A stretch of 64,000 bases of DNA from Raja brachyura (Eukaryota), in NCBI GenBank assembly GCA_963514005.1, contig OY740813.1, positions 10,602,001-10,666,000 on the forward strand. Direction: 5' to 3'. Shown here piece by piece: positions 340 to 60,545 of the stretch; position 1 is the stretch's first letter, and each line of letters opens with the position of its first letter. The notes beneath the pieces were generated by a model, which was given only the letters and a program-made list of their open reading frames with translations, did not search any database and was not told the DNA's origin. Position numbers and translations under genes: made by a program.

Positions 340-545
340 GACACAAGGAACTGCAAATGTTGAAATCGTGAGTGAAACACAGTGATGGAGGAACTCAGTG
401 GGTCGGGCAGCATCTGTGGGGGGAACGGACAGGCGATATTTCAGGTCAAGGCTCCTCACCAATCTAAAGGGGCATCCGGACCTGCAACATTTTCTGCCAT
501 TCCTTCCACAGATGCTGCCTGACCCACCAAGTTTCTACAACACTT
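340..545. mobile_element. Penelope-type palindromic non-autonomous repeat (degenerate)
   Basis: gggtcgggcagcatctgtgg ... ccacagatgctgcctgaccc form inverted halves. Same family as the copies at 19053, 43318 and 54461. Confidence 0.7.
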
Positions 546-607
546 ATTTGGGGCAAGTATTAGTCAAGTTGAAGAGACCATATAAAAAACTGAAGAGGTT
601 TGCACAA

Positions 608-730
608 ACAAGGAATTATAGATGCTGATTTACAAAAAAAGACACAAAGTGCTGGAGTAACTCAGCAGGCCAGGCAACATCTATGGAGAACATAGATGGG
701 TGATGTCTCAGGTCAGGACCCTTCTTCAGG
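608..730 (-). mobile_element. Penelope-type repeat, half copy
   Basis: gacacaaagtgctggagtaactcagcagg...gacccttcttcag matches the family consensus. Confidence 0.7.
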
Positions 731-5281: not shown

Positions 5282-5500
5282 AGCACAAATACTGCAGATG
5301 CTGGAATCTTGTGCAGAAGACAGCACTAAAGTAACTCAGTGGGTCAGGCAGCATCTCTGGAGACCATGGATAGTCAACGTTTAGCTAACTGAAGAAGGGT
5401 CCCGAACTGAAATATGGTCCTGACCCAAAACATCACTTATCCATGTCCTCCAGAGCTGCTGCCTGACCTGTTGAGTTACTCCAGTATTTCGTGTTCTGCG
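5282..5500. mobile_element. Penelope-type palindromic repeat
   Basis: gtaactcagtgggtcaggcagcatctctggag ... ctgaagaagggtcccgaactgaaa ... gctgcctgacctgttgagttac. Confidence 0.75.
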
Positions 5501-7124: not shown

Positions 7125-7310
7125 GACACGAGGAACTGCAGGTGCTGGAATCTTGAGTAAAACACAAGATGTTGGAGGAACTCAGTGGGCCAGGGAGAGG
7201 ACAGATGACATATCAGTTCGGGTCTAAAGCAGAGAACAGACCTGAAACATTGTCTGCCCATTCCCTCTACAGATGCTGCCTAACCCGTGTTCTTTCAGCA
7301 CTTTGTTGTG
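7125..7310. mobile_element. Penelope-type palindromic repeat (degenerate)
   Basis: gaactgcaggtgctgg...ggaactcagtggg ... cagatgctgcctaacccg. Confidence 0.65.
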
Positions 7311-15572: not shown

Positions 15573-16686
15573 ATAGAAACATAGAAATTAGGTGCAGGAG
15601 TAGGCCATTCGGCCCTTTGAGCCTGCATCACCATTCAATATGATCATGGCTGATCATCCAACTCAGTATCCCATACCTGCCTTCTCTCCATACCCTCTGA
15701 TCCCCTTAGCCACATCTAACTCCCTCTTAAATATTGCCAATGAACTGGCCTCAACTACCCTCTGTGTCAGAGAGTCCCAGAGACCCACCACTCTCTGTGG
15801 GGAAAAAAGTCCTTCTCATCTCGGTCCTAAAGGATTTCCCCCTTATCCTTAAGCTGTGACCCCTTGTCCTGGACTTCCCCAACATTGGGAACAATCTTCC
15901 TGCATCTAGCCTGTCCAACCCCTTAAGAATTTTGTAAGTTTCTATAAGATCCCCTCTCAATCTCCTAAATTCTAGAGAGTATAAACCGAGTCTATCCAGT
16001 CTTTCTTCATAAGACAGTCCTGACATCCCAGGAATCAGTCTGGTGAACCTTCTCTGCACTCCCACTATGGCAATAATGTCCTTCCTCAGATTTGGAGACC
16101 AGAAATGTACGCAATACTCCAGGTGTGGTCTCACCAAGACCCTATACAACTGAAGTAGAACCTCCCTGCTCCTATACTCAAATCCTTTTGCTATGAAAGC
16201 TAACATACCATTCGCTTTCTTCACTGCCTGCTGCACCTGCATGCCTACTTTCAATGACTGGTGTACCATGACACCCAGGTCTCGTTGCAGCTCCCCTTTT
16301 CCTAATCGGCCACCATTTAGATAATAGTCTGCTTTCCTGTTTTTGCCACTAAAGTGGATAACCTCACATTTATCCACATTATACTGCATCTGCCAAACAT
16401 TTTCCCACTCACCCAGCCTATCCAAGTCACCTTGCAGTCTCCTAGCATCCCCCTCACAGCTAACACTGCCCCCCAGCTTAGTGTCATCCACAAACTTGGA
16501 GATATTGCCTTCAATTCCCTCATCCAGATCATTAATGTATATTGTAAATAGCTGGGGTCCCAGCACTGAGCCTTGCGGTACCCCACTAGTCACTGCCTGC
16601 CATTGTGAAAAGAACCCATTTACGCCTACTCTTTGCTTCCTGTTTGCCAGCCAGTTCTCTATCCACATCAATACTGAACCCCCAAT
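15573..16686 (-). mobile_element. CR1 LINE, 5'-truncated young copy (RT C-terminal half)
   Basis: ORF 15751-16671 contains SGVPQGSVLGP and KFVDDTKL. It has a 3' UTR with a (TTTCTATG)n tail and a frameshift near the C-terminus. Confidence 0.95.
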
Positions 16687-17159
16687 TATGTACTAAGAAA
16701 TATATTTTTTTTTAGCAGCCTGTAATCCAAATGCTAAAGAAGAGGGGTAAGATAAGAGACAAGAATCATCATTTTCTAAAAATTCTAGGAATTGTGACAA
16801 GGATTTACAGAGCGGCAAATGTTGTACTACTGTTTAGTCAGGATATACTAGCAAATCATCTCCTGCATGTCAAAAGATCTAATCCATTTAGGGATGAAAT
16901 TAATGTACATTTCGAGAGACTATTCAGGAATTGTCAGTATATATTTGGAAAGAAAAACTTGTGTTTCCACAGCATGAAAATAAAATCAATTGGGTAGCGT
17001 TGGTATGTATGGAGTATCTTCTCCAATGTTGTCTGAATTGATAAGAAAATATAAAAGAAAACAAGAATGTCGATTAAATGCAATTAATTCTAACCAGAGA
17101 GATGTAATGAACTCTTTGAAGTAATGAACAATTCTGCTTGTGTTGTAATTTTTTCAAGA

Positions 17160-18761: not shown

Positions 18762-19052
18762 CTACATGCTTGAAGGTTATCAGAATAAACACTTGAGGAG
18801 CCTGCCACATAAAAGTTGGCATATTTATTTTCCAAATCTCCCTTGAAAGCATTGACGTCAACAGTCCATGCATAACACTTTGTTTAAGCAAATCACTGAA
18901 GGTCAGTCCAGTGGATGCCCAACAGGTGCACTAGTGCTTTTTCCAGGGGCATCTATATGATCAGGAGCACAAATTATGATTACCCTACGCAGCAGTTGGC
19001 CACAAGGTCAATTGCAGTATCCACATGACTACCTCAGGAGAAGTTATGTGTG

Positions 19053-19245
19053 GGAAGGAACAGCAGATGCTGTTTTAAACTGAAGATGGACACAAAAAGC
19101 TGGAGTAACTTAGTGGGACAGGTTTCTCTGGAAAGAAGGAATGGGTGACATTTCAGGGCGAGACTGAAGAAGGGTCTCGACCCGAAACATCACCCATTCT
19201 TTCTCTCCAGAGTTGCTGAGTTACTCCAGCTTTTGGTGTCTATTT
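19053..19245. mobile_element. Penelope-type palindromic repeat with hammerhead core at 19164-19191
   Basis: Inverted halves flank ctgaagaagggtctcgacccgaaacatc. Confidence 0.8.
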
Positions 19246-20402
19246 TCAGGAGAGGTTAGCTGGTTCAGTGCAAAAACAAATCCTATACCTTCATGATCAG
19301 TTTAGCCTAATACCAAACCAAGCATTTCTCAGTAAGCAATTAAGACAACTAAAGTTGGAGTTTCTATGGCCTTTTCCCCCATCCAAGATCAGATTGGAAG
19401 TCATATTATTATTTTATTCCCATTGATTGCAAAATATTTTGTGGCTCACTCAAAAATAAAGTTAGTCAAAGGTAAGTAAATGCACTTATGAAGCATTGTT
19501 TTATAATTCCATCATTGAAAAAAACAATGCTGATGGCCTCCTTACTATTTATTTCTACATTTTTGAACAATTTTTGCAAGTCTTATAGAATAGTTCAGAT
19601 AAAGATTCAAGTACTTTCTTCTCTGCTCTTACTCATATCATAGCAATTACTGTATCTTGGAGAAGGGTGCAAATTTGCTATCAATTAGTAATAGATTGTG
19701 TGGAGGCACAGATGATCAAAAATAAAACGTGCAGGTTCCACAAATTCATTCCACAGAGGACTTTTGCAGTCGAGAGACAAGTTTGATCCGATCAATATGG
19801 GTCAGATTTGAACCCAGCTTGTTGAAATAAAAAAATCAACTTGCCTCCCCTTCTCTGCAAGGACAGGTTTAGATATAAGGTTACATAGCAACTGAAAGCA
19901 GAAGCTCTTGGTCAGTGGATGGGACAACAAATCATCAGACAAAATAGAGCAAATCTAGGATCCAAATGGCATTGATTGAAACCATCTTTTAGTTAAAATA
20001 AAATGAATCAAGTGGGAGAAAAAATGTAATAGAATGGCACAGCTTTCGTTGAAGGAATATGTGATCCTAATGAAACAACTTTAGAGTGGAGTAGAGTGCC
20101 CTTAAGACTGAATCAATAAAACACACATTAGTTAGAAAATCCAATATGAAGAAATTGCCATATAGCCGAATGTTGCAAAATATGAATATATTAGCAGATA
20201 AGAAAATATTGAATGGTATAAAAACCCATTGTTGTTTACATGAACATAAGACTTCAGACAAACATTTTCTGATCTGGGACAAACACATATCTAAGACTGT
20301 ACAGTGTGGAGTTTGAAAAATGTAATAAGGACAGAATGGATTACAGATCATAACATTAACATTCTTCAAATCAAACTGTACATATAATGTTCCGTGGTCT
20401 CA

Positions 20403-21782: not shown

Positions 21783-22164
21783 CAAAGATCCTATAGCGGA
21801 GCAAGATAGACCACTCCTGCTAAATGCAATGTAGTACGGAACGGAACGTGGGCCTTTTTTTCATCCATTTCCATAACCGGACCCGACTCGACCCGACTCG
21901 CAATGTAATCAACGTTGCGGGGGATCAGTTTGTGTTAATAAATTAAAATTCTGAAAATTAGAAGATTTTTACCAAATAACTTTTATTTTTACGAGGATGT
22001 TTCCGTAACCGGCTTCCGTCTCCGCACTATTATCCTATGGGATCTTTGGTGCAGAGACGGAAGCCAGTTACGGAAATGGGGCCTTAAATTACCCATGAAT
22101 CTGCCCATGACCGTACTACGTCTTTTTCGTCGAGTGGACTATCTTGCTCGCTATAGGATCTTTG
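21783..22164. mobile_element. Non-autonomous DNA transposon with 8-bp TSD (hAT or P superfamily)
   Basis: About 33-bp TIRs (caaagatcctatagc(g)gagcaagatag.ccactc). Perfect TSD GTCCATTT at 21775-21782 and 22165-22172. Confidence 0.9.
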
Positions 22165-27477: not shown

Positions 27478-27545
27478 GTCACTTATCCATTTTCTCCAGA
27501 GATGCTGCCTGACCCGCTGAGTTACTGCAGCATTTTGTGTCTATC
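27478..27545 (+). mobile_element. Penelope-type repeat fragment
   Basis: ctccagagatgctgcctgacccgctgagttactgcagcattttgtgtcta. Confidence 0.7.
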
Positions 27546-28794
27546 TCAACCCTGTGGATCCTGGGCATTTCCAGCATGATTTGGAGGGAGCACGATTTAG
27601 TACAACAAAATAGAGAGAAAAATAACCTTGACCTTATGGATTTGGAGATAATATTTATTGCCTTTTGGCTCACTGCATGATGAAGATTAGATATCCTCTC
27701 TCATTACATCACCATCCAATTAAATTTCATGCATTGATTTTTTTTTAAATGTACAAAAAAAAAACAACAAAGCAAGAGTTCAAAATATAACAAAAATTCC
27801 CTAGAGGAGAGAAAAGAGAAAATTGGAGGTGGCGGCAAGAGAAAAACGTTGTTCCATCAATAGCGTTTTCCCTACCCCTTCATGAACAAAGGAGGAGTGG
27901 AATGGGCCGGGAGAGAGATTGAAATATTTCCCACCTCGAACCAAATAATGTCCAGGAAGGAAGGACACTATCCTTTATGGGATTACGGTTATTTAACAAT
28001 GTGCTCTCTGAATTTAATTTGAGGATTTCAACATGTATTTTTTAGTAGGATCTTCAGAATGAATCTACCAGCCTTTAATATCAAATGTTAATTGATCTTA
28101 AATGGTGATTTAGAACAATATTTAAGACAATTCTAGTCATTGAATCAATTAATTATTTTAATATTTCCATTCCCCATTAAGATTTTTGCGAAATAATGTG
28201 AAATTTAACAATGATTGTAATTTTGATAAGCAAGTATATGTTATGTGTAGTACCGCATATTTATTCCAACCATGCTTATCTCACTTTATCACTTTTCCCG
28301 GTTGTCACTACGCCAACAAGACACTTACTCAAGTGTATTTTTAGTATGCAGTTCATTATCTGGACAATTGGCGTATATGCATCTGAAAAACGTCACCCGA
28401 CCTGTGGTTTGGCTGTCATTCAGCTATTGTTCAATATATTGAATGCACTTAGAACAAGAGTAGGGTCAGGAATTCATCCGTCACAATAGCTGCATTAACA
28501 GATCACTTGATTCTTTACGTAATCTGTTGACAAAAACCCGAGCATGAAATGTTTCCACTCACCAACTGATCACTTTTTCATTCCATCACCTTTAGATGGA
28601 AGCCTCCTTTACATCTTTTCACCGTCAGAGTGGATCCAGTTTTTAAAAATGATGGCAATCATCAATAAAGTTAGTTTGACGGGAACTTCCTTGAACAAGT
28701 TATTTTGCAAGGAATAGTGATTTAATGCTACTACTGTCATGACATCTTCTGACGTCCATTCTCCCTCACATTGCCTACAAACAAACTTTAACTA

Positions 28795-29870: not shown

Positions 29871-31069
29871 CATAGCCATCATAATTGAAGAAGTGTTCCA
29901 TTAAAATTTACCAGAGATAAATATTTAGATTAGTGACTATTAATTAAAAAAAAAAAATTCTATAAGTTTCTTTAAATATCAGTGTCTACACTTAGTATAT
30001 AGAGAGCAATGTACAGCTCAATTACACTCAATAATTATTTTTGGAATGCAACTAAATCAATAAAAGTAAAATCCCACGGCAGGAGAGTTTAAAACCAATT
30101 AGCGGCATCTAACACAGTGCAACATACATCCATTTTGAAAGATTCACCGATTTTGTTTCTGGTCACATATGACAATCCCCAAAATAATGCATTTTTACCA
30201 TCTTTGATCTACAGGAATCCCTGGAAAAGTAGTCTATTTGAGAACATCCCAATCTTACAGACTCAGACAACCGAGGCTTCCTAGAGACTATAGAATTCAC
30301 AACCCCATTAAAATTAGCACAAATTAGATGCTCTATTCACCAATTTGCTTGTATACATTTTTACCAACTCTTGCTTCCAACTCTCTACTCTTCAAACAAT
30401 TGCATCACAAACAGCAGGTAATGCCAACTGAGAATCCTATTTTAGCCATTTTGTTAAGAAGTTTCTATTTGGAGGCAAGTGATCAAACACTCAAATTAAA
30501 CCGGTTTTCAATGGGTTCTTTTTATTTCAGTTTCCATTAATGTTTGGAAAGCTCATTTCTTTACAAAGACTCATAACATTATTTCATTATATTAGTAACT
30601 GTTTCATTTTGTATATTAGAGGACAGATGACCTAGATTCTCATTTTAAAAAATTGTCTCTCATAACATCTAGCGCCTGGATTTGAGGGTGCGAGGACAGT
30701 CAAAGTGCAAATAGATTCCCATTCCTTCTCTCCAGAGTTCCTTCCTGTTCTGCTGAGTTACTCCAGCATTTTGTGTCTACCTGCAAATAGATTTCTGCTG
30801 CTCTCCCATCAACTGCTGATTCATAGATATTGCAAACAAGAGGAATGAGGCATAGACCTAGGACACCGTGAACTGTTACTCTGCTGGTAATCCTGCATCA
30901 ATAAATGTCTCTGGAGAACATTAGATCAAGTCAAAAGACATTTGAGATATGGCAGTGAATTCATTGCTCTTAAACTATAATATTTGGAAAAACCTGCTTT
31001 CTTTTGTTGTATGAACCCAGCCTCATCTGTGCAGAGTTCATGAACTAAGGTGGGCATTAAAACACTTAC

Positions 31070-31610: not shown

Positions 31611-31698
31611 TTGCTCTAGTGATTTAATTCATAATCAAATAATCTCAAACAGAAATACTAGAAGTCATCAAAAACTCAAGTCTTATAATTACTATAAT

Positions 31699-31792
31699 TC
31701 TGAAGAAGGGTTTCGGCCCGAAACGTTGCCTATTTCCTTCGCTCCATAGATGCTGCCTCACCCGCTGAGTTTCTCCAGCATTTTTGTCTACC
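31699..31792 (+). mobile_element. Penelope-type repeat half copy with hammerhead core at 31700-31727
   Basis: ctgaagaagggtttcggcccgaaacgtt followed by the family consensus. Confidence 0.8.
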
Positions 31793-32401
31793 TCCTATAA
31801 TTAGTTCCAGTTTAATAATATATTTTGAAAGTGGGTTGGACTGTGCTGGACCAAACCTGCATTTCTCCTGGGATGGTCACAGTCACATCTTATATTTTGT
31901 TGCAGGGCTGGCAGTGCCCAGCTGGCTGTACTGTTGTGGCTGCTAAGTAAGACAGAGCAGTGTGCAAACAACGCCTAGACCAAATGAAGGCCACAGACTA
32001 CCCTGATGGCTTAGTGAAGGCTTGTGCTGCCTGGCCTTTCTAATGTTTCCAAATGTTCACAATCACAGATATTTAGGTACAACAGAATAATATTTAAATG
32101 ATGATAGAAATTTAAAAAAAATAAGGAAATTAAGACTCAGAAATGCATTCAACTTTACAAATGTATTTTAATTATCTTTAAGGCTTTAATGAGGTATTAT
32201 AAAAAAACTTTTGGAGAAGATTGGTGATCCTACTCATGAGTGTGTTACGCCAGATGTTCCAGCTGTGGCAGTCATAAAGCTGTAGGAATAGTTATAAGTA
32301 AATCTGGTCATTCAGCCCAGTGTATTATGGAGCTCTGAGTGCTATCACGTCTCGACGTGCAAGTGCAGAAATCCAGAAGACAATCACACATACACTGCAG
32401 C

Positions 32402-36962: not shown

Positions 36963-37297
36963 AGTTTATTATGAAAACTTGTACCTGGAATGACTAATTT
37001 GTCTTATCAGGAAAGGTTGGATTGACTGGACTTGATCTGGCTGGTATTTAGAAGAGTAAGAAGTGACTTGATTAAACATATGGTCCTGAGGGATCATAAC
37101 AGAGTGGACATGAAGAAGATATTTCCTCCTGTCGAAAATTTAGATCCATGGGCCATTGTTTAAAAATAAGGGATTGCCCATTTAAGACACAATTGAGGTG
37201 CATTTTTTGGGAGGGGAGGGGTCGCAAGTCTTTGGAACTCCTCCTCGAAAAGGGAGACGGAAGCAGTCTTTAAAATATGTGAGACAGAGATATTTAA

Positions 37298-37420
37298 GAA
37301 AGAACTGCAAATATTGGAAACATCGAAGGTAGACAAAAATGCTGGAGAAACTCAGCAGGTGAAGCAGCATCTATGGAGCGAAGGAATAGGTGACGTTTCG
37401 GGTCGAGATCCTTCATCAGA
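37298..37420 (-). mobile_element. Penelope-type repeat half copy
   Basis: gaaactcagcaggtgaagcagcatctatggagcgaaggaataggtgacgtttcgggtcgagatccttcatcag. Confidence 0.8.
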
Positions 37421-37690
37421 TAGATGGGTTCTTGATAAGCATGGGGATGGAAGGTTACACGAGAAAGGGCAATTGTGATTACAATCAGATCTACAATATT
37501 ATGAATTTGCAGAGCTGGCTTGTGAGGTTACATAGTCTACCCCTGCTTTTAGTTCGTTCATATGAATGTTCATCATTTTTTTCTCCCACCCCATCACATA
37601 CACAAGATTATACTGTGCTTTCTACATAGAGGTAAAAGTGCACTTGTGCATTTGGGTTATCGAAATACTGCACTACTTTCCCAGCTATGA

Positions 37691-41781: not shown

Positions 41782-42627
41782 CTGCAACAAAATAAGAAGG
41801 ATTAGTAATCATTTTTATAACTATTATTAGCTTTATACAAGGACAATATGAATATAAGAAAGATCACTAGTATATTGAAAGTGCTCTAGATATCTGACTT
41901 TTAAATGAAGCCCCCAAAAAATTAATATAATTTTAAAACAAGATTTTAACTGGAAAACGACAGTCACGATGATGAAAATGTTATTACATTACAAAATGGA
42001 TCAACTATTTAAGCAGGTGAAGCATCTTGTGCATTAGAGCCAAACCTTTGAGAACAGCAAAAACAAAAAGGGTAAATGAATGATCAAAATGTCCAATAAG
42101 ATTTTTTCTTTTTGTGGGCAATGGAAAGTGATTTAGTATTATTAGGGAACATTCTTTTAATTAGACACTAAATACCAGAGTAACTCAACTGGGCAGGCAG
42201 CATCTCTGGAGAACACGGATAGCGGATGTTTCAGGTCACAGGACCCTTCTTCAGAGTGAAAGTCACTGACAGTGCCCTCCATAATGTGTGGGACAGACCC
42301 GTATTCATTTATTTGCCTCTGTACACAATTTGAGATTTGTAATTAAAAAATGTAAATCACATGGGGTGAAAGTGCACATTGTCAGATTTTATTAAATGCT
42401 ATTTTTATACATTTTGGTTTCACCATGTAGAAATTACAGCTGTGTTTATACATAGTCCTCCCATTTCAGGGCACCATCATGTTTGGGACACATGCGTTCA
42501 CAGGCATTTGTAATTGCTTAGGTGTGTTTAATTGCCTTCTTAATGAAGGTATAAGAGAGCTCTCGGCACCTAGTCTTTCCTCCAGTCTTTCCATCATCTT
42601 TGGAAACTTTTATTGCTGTTTATCAAC

Positions 42628-43846
42628 ATGAGGACCAAAGTTGAGCCAATGAAAGTCAAATAAGCCATTATGAAACTGAGAAACAAGAATACAATTGTTA
42701 GAGACATCAGACAAACCTTAATGTTACCAAATTCAACTGTTTGGAACATCAGTAAGATGAAATAGTGCACTGGTGAGCTTACTAATCACAAAGGGATTGG
42801 CAGGCCAAGGAATACTTCCACAGCTGATGACAGAAGAATTCTCTCTATAATAAAGAAAAATCCCCAAACTTCTGTCCGACAGATCAGAAACAGTCTTCAG
42901 GAGTCAGGTGTGGATTTGTCAATGACCATTGTCCGCAGAAGACTTCATGAACAGGAATACAGAGGCTACACTGCAAGATGCAAGATTATAGTTTGCCAGG
43001 AACTACTTAAAAGAGTAACCACAGTTCTGGAAAAAGGCCGTGTGGACAGGTGAGACGAAGATTAACTTATATCAGAGTGATGGCAAGAGCAAAGTATGGA
43101 GGAGAGAAGGAACTGTCCAAGATCGAAAGCATACCACCTCATCTGTGAAATACAGTGGTGGGGGTGTTATGGCCTGGGCATGTATGGCTGGTGAAGGTAC
43201 TGGCTCACTTATCTTCATTGATGATACAACTGCTGATGGTAGTAGCATAATGTATTCTGGAGTGTATAGACACATCCTATCTGCTCAAGTTCAAACATAC
43301 GCCTCAAAGCCCATTGTGGAAAAAAGAACTGCAGATGCTGGTTTAAATCGAAGGTAAACACAAAATGCTGGAGTAACTCAGTGGGTGAGGCAGCATCTCC
43401 GGAGAGAAGGAATGGGCGACGTTTCGGGTAGAGACCCTTCTTCAGACTAATGTCAGGGAGGGGGAGGGACAAAGATAGAATGTAGGCAGAGACAGTAAGA
43501 CTAGTGGGAGAAACACTAGTCTCTCATTGGCCGGCGGTTCATTCTACAGCAAGACAATGATCCCAAACATACGGCTAAAGCAACAAAGGAGTTTTTCAAA
43601 GCTAAAAAATGGTAAATTCTTGAGTGGCCAAGTCAATCGCCCGATCTGAACACAATTGAGCATGCCTTTTATATGCTGAAGAGAAAACTGAAGGGGACTA
43701 GCCCCCAAAACAAGCATAACCTAAAGATGGCTGTAATACAGGCCTGGCAGAGCATCACCTGAGAAGACACCCAGCAACAGGTGATGTCCATGAATCGCTG
43801 ACTTCAAGCAGTCATTGCATACAAAGGATATGCAACAAAATACTAA
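42628..43846 (+). pseudogene. Tc1 transposase pseudogene
   Basis: MRTKVEPMKVK*...GRPR...WTGETK...QQDNDPKH...WPSQSPDLNTIEH...KGYATKY*. Several stops, a deletion, first catalytic D changed to G, and an insertion at about 43318-43520. Confidence 0.9.
43318..43520 (-). mobile_element. Penelope-type repeat inserted in the Tc1 transposase
   Basis: Family consensus with hammerhead core at 43418-43445. Flanked by an approximate duplication c(c/t)cattg. Confidence 0.85.
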
Positions 43847-44310
43847 ATTTGACTACTTTCATTGACATGACATTGCTGTGTCCCAATACATGTGACTATG
43901 TATAAACCCTGCTGTAATTTCTATATGGTGAAACCAAAATGTATAAAAATGGCCTTTATTAAAATCTGCCTGTGCACTTTAACCACGTGATTTTTTCCAT
44001 TACAAATCTCAAATTCTGAAGTACAGAGGCAAATAAATAAATGATGGGTCTTTGTCCCAAACATTATGGAGGGCATTGTATCTCGGTTTTCCTGAGATGC
44101 TGCCTGACCCACTGAGTTACTCCAGCACCATGCCTTGCTGGCTAAGACAACATATGCAGGTCTTTGTTTCTCCATTACTTTAATTTGGTTGTCATACACT
44201 TTTGCGAAGGCCCTGGTCTATACTTTCTGTAAACAATGCGGATCATGTGGAAACAATCACTTTTCACAATAAAATAAAGTTCACCAGAAAGGGAAATGTA
44301 TTTTACCTCA

Positions 44311-44559
<249 letters not shown>

Positions 44560-46739: not shown

Positions 46740-47640
46740 ACAAGAAATGGCAGCAGTAGGTGGCCACTCAGTCTCTCAAACCTGCTCCACAATTCAACAA
46801 TTGAATGGCTCATACTCTATCTTGACACTGCTTTCCTGCCCTGTCTTGTATCCCTTGGTGTTCCAGTACAACAAAGTCCTTGATCGTTACTTTTTTTGCA
46901 TTTCTTTCATTTCTTTGTTCTATATCTCTGTCTATATCTCTTATTTCCATTTCCCCCGACTCTGTCTGAAGAAGGGTCTCGACCTGAAACGTCACCCATT
47001 CCTTCTCTCTAGAGATGCTGCCTGCTGAGAAATACTCCAGCATTTTGTGTCTCTTTTCTAACATTATAAACCCTGGCCAATGAAGTCATAGATTCTTAAT
47101 GTCTTCAACGCCCAAAACTTTTATCTGGGCTCGTCAGAAATCGTGCATTTGTACATTGAGTTTTCTCAGTGCCACAATATTCCCTAGGAGCCTATCATTT
47201 CCTGACCTTTGTAGTCCTTCCAAAATGCATTAATATGCACTTTTCTGGTTAAATGCCACATGCGATTGCTCTGCCCACCACTGATTAACAACATCCTGTA
47301 GCTTACAACCATCTCCTCACTATCAACAATACTACCAATGTCCCAAAGGCAATTTTGGACATAATTTGCCAACTTGTTCTGGAACACATGGACTCACTGA
47401 CCTCTTGGACCCGTCTCCCATGCTGGACTTTGTCAAACGCCTTAAGTCTACGTAGCCCACATCAATCACACTGCCCTCAAACACATTTTGTTACATCTTC
47501 AGAAAATGTAACTAAATTGGTCAAACTGGATCTTCCCCTATCAAAACTCTGTTGATATTCTGATTAATTTTAGCCTTTCCAAATGCAGATTAATCATGTT
47601 CCTCAGAATCCCCCCCCCCCAATAATTGTCCTACCACTGA
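46740..47640 (-). mobile_element. Degraded CR1 fragment with a Penelope-type insertion at about 46885-47055
   Basis: CR1-like tail (cacaagaaatggcagcagtaggtggccactca) and ggactttgtcaaacgcc (AFDKV on the - strand). The insertion carries ctgaagaagggtctcgacctgaaacgtc. Confidence 0.65.
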
Positions 47641-47978
47641 CAATAGACACTGCATTATTTTGCTTATTTCAGGATTTCATGTGTTGGAAGTAAGAGAATA
47701 TCTGGAATAGGTGGGCTGACATGCGGAAAGGCAAGATAGGCTTTCTAGCGTCAACAAACAAGAATTGAAAATAAAAGTGTTTATATATTTATAATTCAGC
47801 GAGTACAAATTTTATTCCGCATTTCAAATTTTTGGGTGGCGATTTAGCAAATCTGGTGCAAGTGAATTTCCGTTAACCAAATGGTGGTAATGTGGAGGTC
47901 GCCTGTATATCTTCGAAGTGCCTTTTGTGACAGGGCAGTGGAAGTAGTCTTTGAAAATTTCAAAGGCAGAGGAAGAAT

Positions 47979-50010
47979 CATAGAAAATAGGTGCAGGAGT
48001 AGGCAATTCGGCCCTTCGAGCCTGCACCACCATTCAATATGATCATGGCTGATCATCCAACTCAGTATCCTGTACCTGCCTTCTCTCCACACCCCCTGAT
48101 CCCTTTAGCCACAAGGACCACATCGAACCCCCTCTTAAATATAGCCAATGAACTGGCCTCAACTGCCTTCTGTGGCAGAGAATTCCACAGATTCACCACT
48201 CTGTGTGAAAAATGATTTTCTCATCTCGGTCCTAAAAGACTTCCCCCTTATCCTTAAACTGTGACCCCTTGTTCTGGAGTTCCCCAACATCGGGAACAAT
48301 CTTCCTGCATCTAGCCTGTCCAACCCCTAAAGAATTTTGTAAGTCTCTATAAGATCCCCCCTTAATCTTCTAAATTCCAGTGAGTACAAGCCGAGTCTAT
48401 CCAGTCTTTCTTCATATGGAGGTCCTGCCATCCCAGGAATCAGTCTGGTGAACCTTCTCTGTACTCCGTCTATGGCAAGAATCTCTTTCCTCAGATTAGG
48501 AGACCAAAATTGTATGCAATACTCCAGGTGTGGCCTCACCAAGACCCTGTACAACTGCAGTAGAACCTCCCTGCTCTTGTACTCAAATCCTTTTGCTATG
48601 AATGCCAACATACCATTCGCTTTCTTCACAGCCTGCTGCACCTGCATGCCTACTTTCAATGACTGGTGTACCATGACACCCAGGTCTCGTTGCATCTCCC
48701 CTTTTCCTAATCGGACACCATTCAGATAATAGTCTACCCTCCTGTTTTTGCCACCAAAGTGGATAGCCTCACATTTATCCACATTATACTGCATCTGCCA
48801 TGCATTTGCCCACCCACCCAGCCTATCCAAGTCACCTTGCAGCCTCCTAGCATCCTCCTCACAGCTAACACTGCCCCCCAGCTTCGTGTCATCCGCAAAC
48901 TTGGAGATGTTGCATTCAATTCCCTCATCCAGATCATTAATATATATTGTAAATAGCTGGGGCCCCAGCACTAAGCCTTGCGGTACCCCACTAGTGACTG
49001 CCTGCCATTCTGAAAATGACACGTTTACTCCTACTCTTTGCTTCCTGTCTGCCAGCCAGTTCTCTATCCACATCAATACTGAACCCCCAATACCGTGTGC
49101 TTTAAGTTTGTATACTAATCTCTTATGTGGGACCTTGTCGAAAGCCTTCTGAAAGTCCAGATATAACACATCCACAGGTTCTCCCTTATCCACTCTATTA
49201 GTTACATCCTCAAAAAATTCTATAAGATTCGTCAGACAGGATTTACCTTTCATAAATCCATGCTGACTTTGTCCAATGATTTCACCAATTTCCAAATGTG
49301 CTGCTATCCCATCTTTAATAACTGACTCTAGCATTTTCCCCACTACCGATGTTAGACTAACTGGTCTGTAATTCCCCGTTTTCTCTCTGCCTCCCCTTTT
49401 AAAAAGTGGGGTTACATTAGCTACCCTCCAATCCTCAGGAACTACTCCAGAATCTAAAGAGTTTTGAAAAATCATCACTAATGCATCCACTATTTCTGGG
49501 GCAACTTCCTTAAGTACTCTGGGATGCAGCGTATCTGGCCCTGGGGATTTATCGGCCTTTAATCCATTCAATTTACCCAACACCACTTCCCGGGTAACCT
49601 GGATTTCACTCAGTTCCTCCATCACATTTGACCCCCGGTCCCCTGCTATTTCAGGAAGATTATTTATGTCTTCCTTAGTGAAGACAGAACCAAAGTAGTT
49701 ATTCAATTGGTCTGCCATGTCCTTGTTTCCCATGATCAATTCATCAGTTCTGACTGCAAAGGACCTACATTTGTTTTAACTAACCTTTTTCTCTTCACAT
49801 ATCTATAAAAACTTTTGCAGTCCGTTTTTATGTTCCCTGCCAGTTTTCTTTCATAATCTATTTTCCCTTTCCTATTTAAGCACTTTGTCCTCCTCTGCTG
49901 GACTCCTCCGAGGGAATTTCTCCCAATCCTCTGGTAGGCTGTTTTTTCTGGAAATTTGTATGCTTCATCTTTAGTTTTGATACTATCCCTGATTTCCCTT
50001 GTTATCCACA
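47979..50010 (-). mobile_element. CR1 LINE, 5'-truncated young copy with a complete RT domain
   Basis: 470-aa ORF 48327-49739 contains NYRPVSLTS, LDFQKAFDKV, GVPQG and KFADDTKL. A premature TAG occurs at 48327 relative to the 15573 copy. It sits antisense inside an older CR1 remnant. Confidence 0.97.
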
Positions 50011-50879
50011 GATCAATGGGACAAAAGTTTAGCACGGAATGAGGAGTTGAGATTACAATCAGATTATCCATGAGGTTCGAGGGACTGAAATGCCGACCCC
50101 CTTTCCCCATTTCATATATTTGTATTCACCACATATAACTAAAGACATTTCTCATCGTTTAGTGGGAAATTACTTATTCCTTATTTTGAAACTGAGCCCT
50201 GGTTTGAGCTTCTCTATCCAGGGGAAAAAATCCTCCACATATTTATGTATTATATTATTGTGCAAAGGATAATTTAATTCTCTTGTCAGCTGCACTAGCA
50301 ATATGAATATTGCAAACTCCAGCATCCTGGGATAGAAGACAAAATTCTCCGTTTGTCAGAGGCTAGGAATTGACATTTTCCCATATAACCAAATACATGG
50401 CAAGTGTTAAATCATGGGGTTTGTGTGTAAGAGGCTTGTATGAACAAGGACAATGAAGTGTTAGAGAAAGGTTACAAAGATTTCTTCCCTCATCAGAAGC
50501 CAAAAGTTTTACCAAAATGTATAATGAGAGCATTCGCAAGATTCAAAAAATTATTTCTAAAGGGGGCCAAAAATAGCTTTAAGTAGATCTGGAAAGAGAA
50601 CCACGTAAAATAATTTAAAGGATGCAAAAAAATCTTCCAGCAATAACCATTTCCTGGCAACTTCCTCCATTACATATTCCTGTATGCACATTTATAATGG
50701 AAACTGTGTATGTAATTTTGTCACATTGTAATTACACCTCCCACTAGCATCTTGTAATAACACACTTGCACCTTCAACCTGCCAAGTTTACATAGATCAT
50801 TTCTATTATACGTGACTCAAATGGACGAAAGAAAAACTAAAAATATGAACCAAATGCATAATATAATGAAGACTAAACT

Positions 50880-51850: not shown

Positions 51851-53329
51851 TAGCCTAATATTTATACAGAGCAACAGGATGAGGTAAAGAAATCCATGCC
51901 TTTCAACTTAGAAATCCGAACACAGATTCTCTTTGTACAGTGGAATAGTTATGGTACCTACAGTTTGGAGTTCTACGTTTATTTTATTACTTGCTTCATG
52001 CAAGAATAATTTTAAGCCAGTATTCATTCAATGAATCGTCCAGGGAAATTCTGACATCAAACCATTTCTTGTTCTAACTCACTTATGGTACACTAACGTT
52101 TTTAAGTGACTGAATTAAACTCCAAAAATAAACTACTTTGCTCAAGGTTATGAGACCTTGAGCAATATAATATCATTGCAGAGGTGGAAATCAAGAATGG
52201 AAAGCAGCCAAAATGTATTTAATAGACAGATATCTGATTGACTTTGCACTTTATAAAGGTCAGATTTTAAAAAATCTATAAAAGATAAATAGGTTATGCT
52301 ATTTTTAAAGAGGCTAGGTCACCTTGGAAGTTGTGAATGTCATGGAATTCTATTGCGTTACCAGAATCAGCTAGAGTAAATGGTTTGTGCAAATCAGAAA
52401 TATATCCTTCTCCATATCTGGTCTGTCTCCTTGTTAATCAGTCCTCTAGGACTTTGTAGACCATTATTTAATGTTACAACTTGTGTACAATTGCAGACTA
52501 AGCATAAGATGGCGATAAATTTCTGTGGATAACTGAAAACGGGGAGGGTTATCCACCGTACCTGACAATGGTAAGGTCAAAGGCTGTGGTGAGCTTGAAA
52601 AAGGTCTAATATAATTGCTAGTGCAACAGTCTGCATTTTTCATGGAGCTGTCATGCAGAGTAGATCACCTGTACCAGGCTTGGAAATTAAAGCCAAGTTG
52701 ACAGCTCCATGGCTGCTAACAATAAGCTGTCTTTGGGCTGTTGTTTCTTTTTTCATTACCTCAATCACACATTCGCAATCATTATAAAATGGAGCAAAAA
52801 CACCAGTTGAGACCAGACCTACGCTCAGCTTCAATTCCCATTATAAACACATTACAAAAAATCCCATTGTCCTGGGTTCATAAGGAATTTCAAAACCAAA
52901 ACTAAACAACGTACGGGGAATCTATGGATGGTTAATCTATTTATAACAATATGTTTCCAATCATATTTCAGTTATCATACAACCCATTGTTTTATTTTTC
53001 ATTTATGTTTTCAAATATGGCTCAATTTTTACACAGCAAAATAAGGCGCAAATCTCCACTACCAATGACAATATTACTTCTGGCAGAAATGCTGGAAATT
53101 TGTCCTCAATGGGCGAAGAGGCTCTTTCTCCACACTTCCAAGGCCTAAAGATGAATGTTTATTGATGCCAGGCCAGCTGTACATGTAATTTCCACATGGA
53201 TCTGGTGCTATTAATACTGCAGCTATGTCTCCCAAAGCCCAATTCCAAGCACCCAATGATACAGATACCAAAACTGCGGGATATCGAGGAGTCCCTAGTG
53301 AGAGCCTATCTCTGTCCCGCCAACTCCCG

Positions 53330-53463
53330 TCATCAGTCTGAAGAAGGGTCTCGACATGAAATGTCACCCATTCCTTCTCCCTGGAGATGCTGCCTGTGCC
53401 GCTGAGTTACTCCAGCATTTTGTGCCTACCTTCGATTTAAACCAGCTAGTTCTTTCCTACACA
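53330..53463 (+). mobile_element. Penelope-type repeat half copy
   Basis: cagtctgaagaagggtctcgacatgaaatgtcaccc...gctgagttactccagc. Confidence 0.8.
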
Positions 53464-54460
53464 GAGTGGTATATATGATTTCGGAATGTGGAAGCCATAC
53501 AAAATATATATTTTTTAATGATGATGCAAGGTGAGACAGTTGTATAGAACCAGATCTTTCAGTCTAACTGTATATAATGTTTATACCCATCATAAATATA
53601 CTCCCACTAAAATTGTATCTTCTGGTTTTATACCCATATTTACACATTCTCTACTTCTCACATTTACATTACATTTTCTCCTATGAACTAAAATATAGTA
53701 TATCTGATCTCTTTGGATAGCATGCAAAACAATGCTTTTCACTGTACATGGTACACATGACAATAATAAAACTAAACCGTTATCTGCTACAACTAACCCA
53801 TGTGATTGCAAATTCCACATTATCATTGCTTTGCACTAAATCCTCTTCAGTTCTTTACGTCATTTGATGACTAGCTTACATCACGATTCTGCTTGTTCTG
53901 GACTTATCTAGAAGTGGAAATCATTCACATCTATCCTGTCAAATGCCATAATGAAAAAAATTCGTAAAAGGTATTTTTGTAATCTTCTAACTCCAACTGA
54001 AAGAAAACCTCAGTCTGCTCCATCTATTCTGATGGTCACATTGATTACTTCCCATTTCTTTATAAATACCTGCTATGCTTTGTTCAATGCCAAGATGTTA
54101 AAAGGCAACTAAAAAGAGTAAATACAAAAAAAGGATAGCCAGAGTGCGAGAAGAAGATAGATGCAGATCTGTTGTCAATTTAAAATTACACAATGTGGAC
54201 CATGATACCCGAAAGAGAGGTTACTGTTAGGAAGTAGGAAAATGAGTGTATCGTTTTTATTTGCAACCCTGTGTTTTTCTTGACGGCACTGTACTACAAG
54301 CTCTCCGGTAGCTTGTCCAAATAGCTCTTCCTCATTCTTGAGTTGCAATCATGTTAGTATGCTGAAGATCACGTCAGCCATTGGAAAGCTTCTTCAGCCT
54401 AAATGGACAATGACAGATAGTCACTGATAAGCAGTCGGTTATGCAAACCAATTAACGTGT

Positions 54461-54700
54461 CGGAAGAAACTGCAGATGCTGGTTTAAACCGAAGATTGAT
54501 ACAAAAAACTGGAGTAACTCAGCAGGACAGACAGCATCTCTGGAGAGAGGAAATGGGTGACGTTTCGGGTCGAGACCCTTCTTCAGACTGAAAGTCACGG
54601 AAAAGGGAAACAAGAGATATAGACGATGATGAGAGAGATATAGAACAATGAATGAAAGATATGCAAAAAAGTAACGATGATAAAGGAAACAGGCCATTAG
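54461..54700 (-). mobile_element. Penelope-type repeat, long form, with intact hammerhead core at 54559-54586
   Basis: The - strand reads cagt-ctgaaga-a-gggtctcgaccc-gaaacgtc-accc. The upstream part matches 46885-46965. Confidence 0.85.
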
Positions 54701-54717
54701 ATGCTTGTTACTACTTA

Positions 54718-55304
54718 AGGGCCTGTCCCACCAGCATGCAACTCGATGCGATTAGCGCGACCTAACGTGGTCGCTTGAGCCGTCCGGCGTCGCGGGGCCG
54801 GTCCCACTTCGATCGCGGGAGCCGTGCGGAATTGTGCGGAGTTCGTCCCGAGTTCGTCCCGATGCCGCGCGGGGCTCCGAAAAACCGACAATGTCCAAAA
54901 ATCCCGCGCGGCAACGGTTTGTCGGCTCGCAGTCGCCGCGACATTTACATACCGCCCGGACATCGTGCCTCCGTGAAACTATTCGTAAGTGCCTCCGTGA
55001 CCCTCTATGTGTGTGGCTCCGTGGCCCTGTATGTGTGTGTGTCTCGGTGCCCCTCTCTGTGTGCCCCTCTAAGTCCTGCGAACTTACCTTGGACTTGCTT
55101 CAAGTTCGCCTCGCTTTGCGCCGCGTTGCGCCACTCACCCAACCTCCGCGCGGCCCCTACTGCCGGTTTAGTTGCGCTTGCCGCATACAGGCGCATGCTG
55201 GTGGGACCGGACCTGTACAGGAGATCACCCGACCTCCGCGCGGCCCCCGCTGCCGGTTTGATCGCGTTCATCGCATATAGTTGCGTGCTGGTGGGACAGG
55301 CCCT
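54718..55304. mobile_element. PIF/Harbinger MITE (GC-rich)
   Basis: TIRs agggcctgtcccaccagca(t/c)gcaact. TSD TTA at 54715-54717 and 55305-55307. Confidence 0.9.
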
Positions 55305-56629
55305 TTACTCTAGATAAAATTGAATCATAGCACAGGGAAGGCAGAGAACATAAGATATTTTCCATATGTAGAAGTCTTGTGAGTGGTGGAATACTTCACT
55401 GAGTATTTGGACAAGATATATTATTTGATGGCTGGATGGAAAGGGATCCTTTGTGGTTTTTTGGCAGATAACATAAAAAAGACATGGCATTCATGCATAA
55501 TGGGTTTTTCCTGGAGAAAGGGCAAGATTTCAAACGTATTCCTGCAGATCAAATAGCTAGCCTGCAAGATTGAAGTGAAGTGTACTTGACAATATTGATT
55601 TTACTCATGATTATTATACTAACAAAGTAACTTTGCCCTTCATATTTTTCAGCTACACCTACTTTCCATTGTTTCCAAATCAACATTAAACAATTTGATA
55701 ACAGATCATTATTGTTGTATTAACGACCATTATCAGAAGGGTATCACAGTATGATGCAGGTGAATGTTATTTTCATCTTGTCGCAATAACCTTTTGAAAG
55801 CAATCCTACAGAAACAGTTGTAGCAGATTTTTTCAATATCGGATATAGTTGAAAATACGAAAATGTAATTTTCAAAAATAGGACCAAAAATGTCATACAA
55901 AATATGAGACAGAGATCCCAATCATTAAAAGTATCTATCAATTCTTAAAAGGGTTAAAAGAACAATCATAATTTGCTTTAGACCTGGAACCATTGGTTGG
56001 GTGCTAATGTTCAGTTGGATTCAGTCTTTTGGAAATAGTCACAGCTAAATCTCACCCATTTACGCAAAGAGGAAATACATTACTTTCTGAATGTGACTTT
56101 CGGAAAATCAGATTTCTCCCAAAAGTAAATGTTATTTCAGCAGGTAATTATCCAAGCACAATTATAATTCCAAGCATTTTTTTGTTACAGAGCTTCTAAC
56201 TTTATGAATCAAACAGAACATTTTGGAAATAATAACGATCTAGCCAAGTTTTCAAAATGACAGGGGCAGCTAAAAATTTAAATGAGGAGACACCCAGAAA
56301 TACAGAACTCCAACATCATAGAGCAAGCTATCACAGCCTGTCTAAACAAAGGAATAGCTTGCAATAAATAGAGTTAATATTCCAGGTGAATGTTGTTTTA
56401 CTAGTACTAGACAAACAGTCAATGTGAAATATTCGCCCATTTCCACAGGCGCTGACTTACTTGCTGGTTATTTCCAGCATTTCTTGTCTTATTTTAATTT
56501 TCCAGCACTTGCAGTTTTTGATTACAATGTACAATACATAATGAACATCTATTTCTCACCAGCCACTTTTCACAAAACTAAGTATTTATACATTCCCAAA
56601 CTAATCCAGCATAATCTGCAGCTCAGACA

Positions 56630-58330: not shown

Positions 58331-59436
58331 AGCTTTAACATTTATTTAAAAAAACCTGCAGTTCCACTTTTCAGTGCTTAAGTCTAAAATCTCTTTCAGC
58401 ATTTATGGTAGAACAAAAATAAACGATATGGCTACTTGAAACATGGTAAATATTACCATCAAGAAATGAGTGAATCCTGTGAAAGGAAGCTCATCAACAC
58501 CTCCTCTGCTATTAACACACACATGTCAATCTTAGATGCTTAGCAAGTAAAGAGGAAAATGCATTTGCTCCAAGCCAACTTCACATTCAATAGTATGCAC
58601 AAGACACTAAGGGGCGATGCCAAATAAATACTTTTCTCCCATCCTAAAAAATAAGGTCAAGATAATGAACTGGAATATTCCAGTTTGGAAAGGTCAAAGC
58701 AGTATAAAGCAAGTTCCCACTGATTTCCATGCAGATTATCAGACTGGGAAGAAAGAATTTGCATTCATAACTATTCAAAGCCTTAGGATGTCAACACACT
58801 TTGCAGCTGACTAAATACGTTTGGAAGTATGGTTTAGGAAGCATGGTAGCCAATATAATAATGACCAGCTACTTTCAGTTTCGCTAATTTAAATTGCAAA
58901 TGTGAAGATTCCCCCTGCACTTAAGAAGCAGAAAAGGATCAGTGGCACCAGACTAGAAGGAGGTTTGATTTAATGTCACTTGCTTAAGAGTGCTGCAGCC
59001 CTTAAATGCTGCACTAGTGTAGCAATAAGAGTAATGGGGGTAATAGAGTGCTAATCAAGACCACCCAATTTTGAGTGTTTTATTTAATTAGTGGGAAACA
59101 AAAACATTTCATCTGGTCCAACAAGGTCAAAGATTTAAAATATCAGCAAAGGATTAGAGGGCAATTGTTGAGAACGTTTTTTATATGCAAAGATGTTAAA
59201 ATGTGGAGTGCGTGGACTAAACAAAAATCAGACTGATAGAAACCTCCCAAAAAGCAATTCAACATCTATTTAGAGGAATATGAAGAAAAGGCTGGGATAT
59301 GGGACTAAACTGGCAGCTCAGAACAGGCACAAGAGCCGTCAGCCAAATGGCCTCCTTCACTGGAATGTCATTCTACAAATGACATCAGAGAAGTAAACCA
59401 AGTCCAATCATTTTCTATTTCCTTATTTCCTATTAG

Positions 59437-59535
59437 CCTATTTCCTTCACTCCATAGATGCTGCCTCACCCGCTGAGTTTCTCCAGCATTTTTGTCTACC
59501 TTCGATTTTCCAGCATCTGCAGTTCCTTCTTAAAC
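59437..59535 (+). mobile_element. Penelope-type repeat fragment
   Basis: ctccatagatgctgcctcacccgctgagtttctccagcatttttgtctacc. Confidence 0.8.
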
Positions 59536-60404
59536 ACCAATCATTTTCAGCTGCTTCTTCAATTACTCCCCTTCATTAGGTCAGAAGTAGTGCAGTTCCA
59601 CACATATATCTTCAGAAAATTAAACAGAAACATTGATGACCTCAAAGGATCAATCAACCTCACACACCAAGAGTCCAAACGCATCCATTTCACAACATTA
59701 TGCCTATTGGCTAAAGAATAACTGGATCAACCAGCTCATTACAGTAAAGGTTATTGTCATATGCACGAGTAACAATTGCGGATAGATTAGAAGGGCCTAT
59801 CCTGATAATTAGATGCTGCTTACAGACCATATGTTATACCACAAGGATTAACCGAGTTAATTTATGAGGGTTGATAAATTTAGTTTATATTCAATCAGGT
59901 TTAGCTGGCTTAATGAAATATTGGGGCAACAGTAAAACAAATGCTGTATCAAGCTATGAATGGATTTAATGAATGGATAAAACAATGTTTTATTGTTGCC
60001 CCGATGTTTAGTTAATTCAATATCTACATTCCAGGTCGCTTAAGTTGCCCAATATTGGATCAAATTCTGACTGGCCAATATTTAAACGCATGCGATAGGA
60101 TTGAGATTTCTCCTCTCCAGCAAAATATCACACCGCCGACATCCCTGTTGGTTTTGCCAATAGCAATGTCCTCCTCTACAATCAGAGATTGAACCACATT
60201 ACACAGTTGTATTCTCCATTGCTAAATTAACAGATTATTAAATACGCATTAATCCGAACGTTTTGCTCAACGCCATAGGGGTCGGATTTTGAGAAATATT
60301 TTGTAACATTAACTTCAATTAATACATTAATATTTTTTATTCAGCATATCACTGAATACTCAAACAGCTCAAACATATGCAATGTAGAAAGTATTCCAAT
60401 AGGT

Positions 60405-60545
60405 CGACACAAAATGCTGGAGTTACTCAGCAGGACAGGCAGCATCTCTGGAGAGAAGGAATGGGTGACGTTTCGGATCGAGACCCATCTTCAGACTGAT
60501 CAGTCTTTGATTTAAACCAGCATCTGCAGTTCTTTCCTACACAGG
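60405..60545. mobile_element. Penelope-type repeat
   Basis: gacacaaaatgctggagttactcagcagg...gacgtttcggatcgagacccatcttcag...ccagcatctgcagttc. Confidence 0.8.

Follow-up and report, generated by a model that had tools for sequence, protein, structure and literature searches.

We propose, with a probability of roughly three in four, that the hammerhead-bearing repeats of the window (the whole 64-kb stretch of Raja brachyura DNA that was analysed) are decaying end pieces of a Penelope-like element (PLE), probably of Neptune type, most likely produced when uncut RNA, probably beginning a few bases ahead of the motif in the pseudo-LTR (pLTR), was reverse-transcribed. The motif itself is almost certainly a minimal type I hammerhead residing in the pLTR of an endonuclease-bearing PLE, a known kind of arrangement.

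The minus strand at 54586-54559 reads CUGAAGA-A-GGGU(CUCG)ACCC-GAAA-CG-UC, exactly as the original prediction gave it, and the cores at 43445 (-) and at 31700 (+), the latter with a GUU triplet and a UUCG loop, are also as it described them. The focal and the young copies share the features of the class, namely the extra base A (9-10.1), the G10.1-C11.1 pair and the ACGU palindromic stem III, which supports the assignment to the minimal hammerheads of Penelope type. A strict hammerhead descriptor matched seven times in the window and not once in any of 200 shuffles, and an Rfam scan of the window matched no hammerhead model, returning seven unrelated weak hits. With a profile built from 67 real copies of the family we found 21 segments in the window, grouped by hand into 17 loci (Table 1), and self-BLAST ranks the family as the most covered in the window, in keeping with the earlier estimate of about 15 copies of its most abundant repeat. 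Core and stem II are kept in 7 of the 14 window segments that cover the core, and no tandem hammerhead array is present among the window's 17 tandem-repeat rows. Two details had to be revised: the copy at 19164, taken for an AUC-triplet variant, is a decayed copy that has lost the ACGU palindrome through a CpG change (ACAU), and the copies at 46966 and 60467, taken for decayed ones, keep all core bases (at 46966 and 60494) with one G-U pair in stem II. Positions in the element are counted below from the C of CUGA as 0, which places the scissile bond between +27 and +28.

Table 1. Copies of the hammerhead-bearing repeat and the host gene exon in the window
Feature	Positions	Strand	Evidence
Core of the minimal type I hammerhead, made up of CUGAAGA, an additional A, stem II of 4 bp, GAAA, palindromic ACGU and GUC	54559..54586	-	sequence; strict descriptor; same sequence as in the two pLTRs of intact elements
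Focal copy, a 3' end truncated on its 5' side (some 3' UTR, pLTR, long tail), from an older PLE subfamily; sense, in intron 1 of the EEIG1-like gene	54458..54709	-	profile match E 9e-74; 80-85% identity to young pLTRs
Short copy in intron 2, sense, with intact core	43317..43460	-	profile search
Short copy, 6-nt loop II, palindrome lost	42162..42268	-	profile search
Short copy with intact core, stem II having one G-U; inverted tail piece before it	60400..60543	-	profile search
Longer copy with intact core, ~85 nt of 3' UTR and stem II closed by G-U	46883..47054	+	self-BLAST, profile search
Short copy, GUU/UUCG subfamily, short 3' end	31697..31795	+	profile search
Head-to-head inverted pair, joined at hammerhead's 5' edge	19050..19260	.	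self-BLAST, profile search
Head-to-head inverted pair, decayed	5290..5497	.	self-BLAST, profile search
Head-to-head inverted pair, decayed	343..545	.	profile search
Overlapping inverted pair, strongly decayed	7130..7306	.	profile search
Short decayed copy	607..730	-	profile search
Short copy, stem II mismatch	37293..37424	-	profile search
Short decayed copy	53326..53462	+	profile search
Fragment without core	27478..27551	+	profile search
Fragment without core	30718..30786	+	profile search
Fragment without core	44089..44169	+	profile search
Fragment starting near scissile bond	59436..59535	+	profile search
Host gene exon 2, NT-C2 domain	44350..44493	-	domain match

Upstream of the repeat one reaches the final codons of an ORF for a reverse transcriptase (RT) with a GIY-YIG endonuclease. 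Searching the genome at the protein level yielded numerous open frames, of which some have 1,203 codons, and 16 regions were fetched. In two of these, L083 and L089, an intact ORF is flanked on both sides by the identical 28-nt core, so that the autonomous partner sharing the repeat's end, which the original prediction had called for, is found in the same genome. The 1,203-codon protein carries DKG and YIDD, a CX4CxxC linker (residues 1070-1078) and, at its C terminus, a GIY-YIG domain with CCHH. Pfam recognizes RVT_1 and GIY-YIG in it, the latter weakly and below the cut-off, which it exceeds in L030; 540 homologues were found, and a PDB sequence search with the ORF gave 0 hits. PLE hallmarks are present, that is, pLTRs from partial tandems, an inverted 5' copy and a 30-40-bp tail. 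As a CX2-5CxxC linker before the endonuclease marks Neptune or Nematis PLEs (PMC8557442, as excerpted), the element may be called Neptune type, a label taken from the linker motif. At L084-L085 (C18:46.36-46.38 Mb) the element forms a head-to-tail array with a period of 3,965 nt and a hammerhead in each unit, the ORF being frameshifted; such an array of full-length elements is a natural site for dimeric cleavage.

The young short units equal the autonomous pLTR base for base and have no diagnostic sequence or lineage of their own. The focal copy, decayed and ~250 nt long, reaches 125 nt upstream into the PLE 3' UTR, and these two observations speak against the separate non-autonomous element that had been envisaged, even though the short units, with their fixed ends and target duplications, resemble a fixed-ended class. 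By its sequence the focal copy belongs to an older subfamily; the intact masters found are of the young subfamily. No remnant of the PLE ORF was detected in the window by tblastn of the 1,203-codon ORF. A 7-bp target duplication considered around the focal copy was rejected, as its upstream match sits within a neighbouring repeat. A GC-rich repeat with internal 90-nt duplications at 54717-55308 adjoins the focal copy, and its end looks similar to a MITE terminal repeat. The window also holds LINE reverse-transcriptase fragments at 15575-16692 and 47974-50125 (313- and 482-aa frames), which we take to be CR1/L2-like, and a 112-aa frame at 43019-43357 without a Pfam hit that looks like a fragment of a Tc1-type transposase. 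A near-perfect 29-bp hairpin at 22000-22076, whose Rfam microRNA hit lies far under the gathering score, is probably a small inverted-repeat element.

A second, very young endonuclease-bearing (EN+) PLE family, which includes the genome's best-scoring GIY-YIG protein, was considered as the partner of the repeat and rejected, since the two have no DNA in common. It forms head-to-tail arrays interleaved with telomeric repeats (the telomeres of this genome are TTAGGG), its 3' end running into CCCTAA repeats, at L023-L029 and L017-L022 (the C8 end and the C19, C21 and C24 starts) and also at the ends of C2, C14, C17, C18, C23, C29 and C31 and on both C1 arms. Its 760-aa ORF2 (RT and GIY-YIG) is 32% identical to that of the hammerhead-repeat PLE and overlaps a 602-aa ORF1 with a weak SGNH/GDSL hit, upstream of which lies a hammerhead-like motif of its own. 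Published telomeric PLEs are mostly endonuclease-deficient, and our literature search found no publication matching a telomere-embedded EN+ family.

The abundance of the hammerhead repeat was sampled in sixty 10-kb stretches picked by round coordinates, a sample outside which the chromosome ends lie. It contains 241 segments, a density of 4.0 +/- 0.4 per 10 kb, which together span 28,983 of 600,000 bases, and extrapolation to the 2.70-Gb genome gives ~1.1 million segments and 4.8% of the sequence, the halves of inverted pairs being counted separately. Exact genome counts for the young subfamily are 18,255 with a 63-mer and 55,173 with a 36-mer. Core and stem II are intact in 29 of the 149 sampled segments that cover the core, which extrapolates to ~130,000 genome-wide, compared with the ~4,000 minimal hammerheads reported in coelacanth and ~9,000 in Xenopus (PMC4209133, as excerpted).

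Most young copies are units of 95-135 nt that begin at the 5' edge of the hammerhead and stop at either of two tail ends of the PLE. Across 217 hits, 130 start between -15 and +4 and 6 between +25 and +34. We anchored 38 young copies downstream of the ribozyme, within +44 to +79; contig C1 contributed its first 30 and the random sample another 8, and some of them are the two halves of a single pair. Of the 38, 29 have their start at -8 to +7, 7 continue far upstream and 2 start at +37 and +41, with no end between -9 and -52 and none at +28. Among the older copies upstream conservation drops from 77% at -1 to background at -6 (119 anchors). The fixed 5' ends lie between -4 and +2 relative to the first C of the core, the edge being spread over ~8 nt and blurred by junction microhomology. 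The 3' ends fall into two classes ~35-40 nt apart, at +90 to +96 (55/103) and at +127 to +131 (24/103). When 90 short copies were examined, 60 of them from loci fetched because they looked short, 28 had an inverted piece upstream and 62 had no inverted partner; duplications of 8-17 bp flank 27 of the 62, and 13 of these end within -5 to +3, while about half of the 27 cases involve fillers of 2-30 nt or distant, probably chance, duplications. Target duplications at the borders of short copies argue that the short units were inserted as such.

As the 5' edge is sharp and no ends occur just upstream of it, a transcription start is the simplest account, and we lean towards transcription beginning at the hammerhead's 5' edge. 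The TCAGT/CCAGT found there resembles an initiator, and such a start site would fire in any pLTR; a DPE-like match at ~+25 to +31 was set aside as a promoter element, being too weak. Excerpted reports describe internal promoters in PLE pLTRs (PMC2377424, PMC3846280). The element's protein would then start copying the RNA internally, from either tail site, and by running off the 5' end of the RNA after 95 or 130 nt it would produce the 95-135-nt unit, read-through RNA giving rise to the longer copies. In the anole PLE, according to excerpts of PMC11167929, RT starts internally, the tail is tied to two internal RT start sites, cleavage is protein-assisted and unprocessed RNA is the main template. 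Since an RNA starting at -3 has only 2-3 bases for stem I, cleavage would need the element protein, as in the anole PLE; the ribozyme would be inactive in free RNA and in host introns, cutting at most rarely and probably only when protein-bound. The search for a cap signature at the 5' ends was equivocal: a G precedes 15 of 28 hand-tallied starts at -2 (p=0.007) and 10 of 24 at -3 (p=0.08), and a lone extra G is found in only 2 of the 27 duplication-defined junctions. Contigs assembled from public runs, classed as RNA by guess, have loose ends at -4 in other organisms and are uninformative on starts, strand and level; the 195-nt skips seen in them occur in a probable DNA run too.

The fixed edge could instead be the place where reverse transcription of a long RNA stops and folds back, stalling after a folded or protein-bound hammerhead, with cDNA ends that pair via CAG-N-CTG. 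This would explain well the head-to-head pairs, which are centred on CAG-[T/A]-CTG, and the inverted piece upstream of those 28 of the 90 short copies; the anole protein is described as cutting and extending both strands (PMC11167929, as excerpted), and palindromic inverted junctions have been interpreted as self-priming in excerpts of PMC3846280. However, the other 62 lack such a partner, no young copy ends at -9 to -52, and a structural block should act at the hairpin's 3' side, not once the core is copied. We consider such a stop or fold-back rather unlikely.

Less probable still is that the edge is a 3' splice site and that short copies derive from spliced RNA, as would be suggested by the upstream pyrimidine tract ending in CAG (CAG/UCUGA), by bases -2 to -4, which are similar to exon-end frequencies, and by the intron of D. 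virilis Penelope, which ends at helix I (PMC4209133, PMC2377424, as excerpted). Yet 13 of the 27 duplications adjoin the core and leave no room for an exon, the fillers share no sequence, and no GT..AG is present on the sense strand among the joints listed (15 of 56).

Were cleaved RNA the template, copies would start at +28. A young copy was scored as an apparent start when neither of the two bases before it agreed with the element; genome-wide this gave 232 at +28, 145 at +30 and 231 at +32, hence no spike at the scissile bond and less than 1% of young copies. Inspection, which covered the +28 set, showed that of thirty cases ten had a mutated core, ten were inverted junctions and ten were apparent starts, three of the last in one tandem array. 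Cleavage as the origin of the fixed 5' edge was rejected on the absence of +28 ends among the 38 anchored copies and of a genome-wide spike. Insertions of 2-8 nt are found at the scissile bond, and 4 of 13 such copies (the young copies L312, L315, L316 and L324, four loci possibly of one source, in a tally of this bond) carry AAA there, a possible scar of cleavage, oligoadenylation and rejoining. At L291:1410-1690 a complete short unit is followed by three tandem repeats of +28 to +88, starting at the scissile bond. The AAA insertions and this triple stutter are compatible with rare cleavage, as weak hints.

Among 125 copies, G12, which lies in a CpG, reads G in 67 and A in 49, and as other CpG guanines are retained in 60-76%, its retention is like that of any CpG, indicating that inserted copies decay without protection of the catalytic base. 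Core positions outside CpG have a mean conservation of 0.93, a value that the best block downstream also reaches (0.93) and that exceeds the mean for the downstream part (0.87); this level fits conservation in master elements only. The covariation alignment comprised 96 sequences: the focal copy, one young copy and 94 anchors, which remained of the 119 once those whose 5' register is broken had been set aside. In it 86.8% of helix cells are paired, but the covariation score is reached by 135 of 500 shuffles in this single family dominated by decay, and pair-keeping variation is limited to U-A/U-G at the base of stem I. The expectation that stem II pairing is kept while its loop varies held in that loop II is more variable than stem II, but covariation does not rise above the shuffles. 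ViennaRNA, which ignores tertiary contacts, gives stem II a probability of 0.001-0.07 and the dimeric hammerhead ~-6 kcal/mol vs -20 to -21 for the best two-strand fold, so that in free RNA the hammerhead is predicted not to be the favoured fold.

The host gene, which we take to be EEIG1/FAM102A, has further exons at ~41781, 34346, 31086 and 18698, with exon 1 ~33 kb beyond the window. Mapping of the exons bore out that the intact minus-strand copies at 54586 (intron 1) and 43445 (intron 2) are both sense to the gene. Family segments within the gene show no strand bias (13 sense vs 14 antisense), and the seven intact window cores are likewise divided, four sense and three antisense. Given the lack of strand bias, the CpG-like decay of G12 and a hammerhead that is not the favoured fold, pre-mRNA cleavage by the intronic copies, which the original prediction had thought possible, is unlikely; the lack of a 5'-end excess at the scissile bond also disfavours it. 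The repeat's hammerhead probably does not cut the RNA of its host gene, and as an intronic ribozyme regulating that gene the repeat is probably of no importance. The broader reading, in which an independent non-autonomous element carries an active ribozyme and host pre-mRNA is cleaved by it, is very improbable: the 29 of 149 sampled copies that retain core and stem II (~130,000 by extrapolation), the AAA at the scissile bond and the weak cleavage of related minimal hammerheads as dimers (PMC4209133, as excerpted) would favour it, but nothing diagnostic exists beyond the pLTR, the host gene shows no strand bias, G12 decays neutrally, stem I has 2 bp, solo copies lie kilobases apart and ends do not spike at +28.

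The motif, its PLE context, the solo and inverted copies and the tail are already published; our literature search found no description of this elasmobranch family, which supplements, Repbase or Dfam may hold. With the metazoan PLE hammerheads of Cervera and De la Pena 2014 (PMC4209133), as excerpted, the repeat shares the type I core with the extra base 9-10.1, G10.1-C11.1, the palindromic 15.2-16.2 and no loop 3, the location in both pLTRs and a mostly dispersed occurrence, solo or as opposite-strand pairs. Helix I is of 2 bp here and in D. virilis, unlike the 4-5 bp of the Schistosoma families, and the fixed 5' edge seen here goes unmentioned for minimal hammerheads in the excerpted text. 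Poseidon PAc of Anolis carolinensis (Frangieh et al. 2024, PMC11167929, as excerpted) has in common a pLTR hammerhead, two 3' ends defining a 30-40-nt tail and copies of uncut RNA; its ORF starts at stem II, whereas here the start is ~160 nt downstream of the core. The CX2-5CxxC linker present here is absent in Penelope/Poseidon, as far as the excerpted sources go. The Neptune/Nematis EN+ PLEs (Craig et al. 2021, PMC8557442, as excerpted) share the single ORF with RT, CX2-5CxxC and C-terminal GIY-YIG with CCHH, the partial tandems, the inverted 5' copy and the tail, but the ORF is longer here (~1,190 aa, with a Pro-rich N-terminal stretch) and the inspected flanks show no microsatellite targeting. 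Non-LTR retrozymes (bioRxiv 10.64898/2026.07.22.740005, as excerpted) likewise have a type I hammerhead, a PLE pLTR origin and no coding capacity; they are tandem units each with a hammerhead, whereas the window copies are solo or head-to-head.

The role of PLE hammerheads is an unsettled question (PMC8557442, PMC11167929, as excerpted). A young family that has intact masters and over 55,000 near-identical copies offers a DNA record of both RNA ends, with counts beyond those of small families, and these counts, in which the template is almost always uncut, argue against cleavage and circularisation as the main route. As a repeat at ~5% of the genome, the family is also relevant to repeat annotation. 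We tentatively suggest that the 95-135-nt unit may be a complete run-off copy from a 5'-edge initiator to the internal RT start, in which the ribozyme would form the first 31 nt of a capped RNA, rarely cut in the RNP and leaving scars such as oligo(A), and that solo units with promoter activity could constitute a self-seeding SINE-like class. If solo units do keep promoter activity, there would be ~1 million such copies, and possibly no ribozyme motif would be more abundant in a vertebrate genome than theirs.
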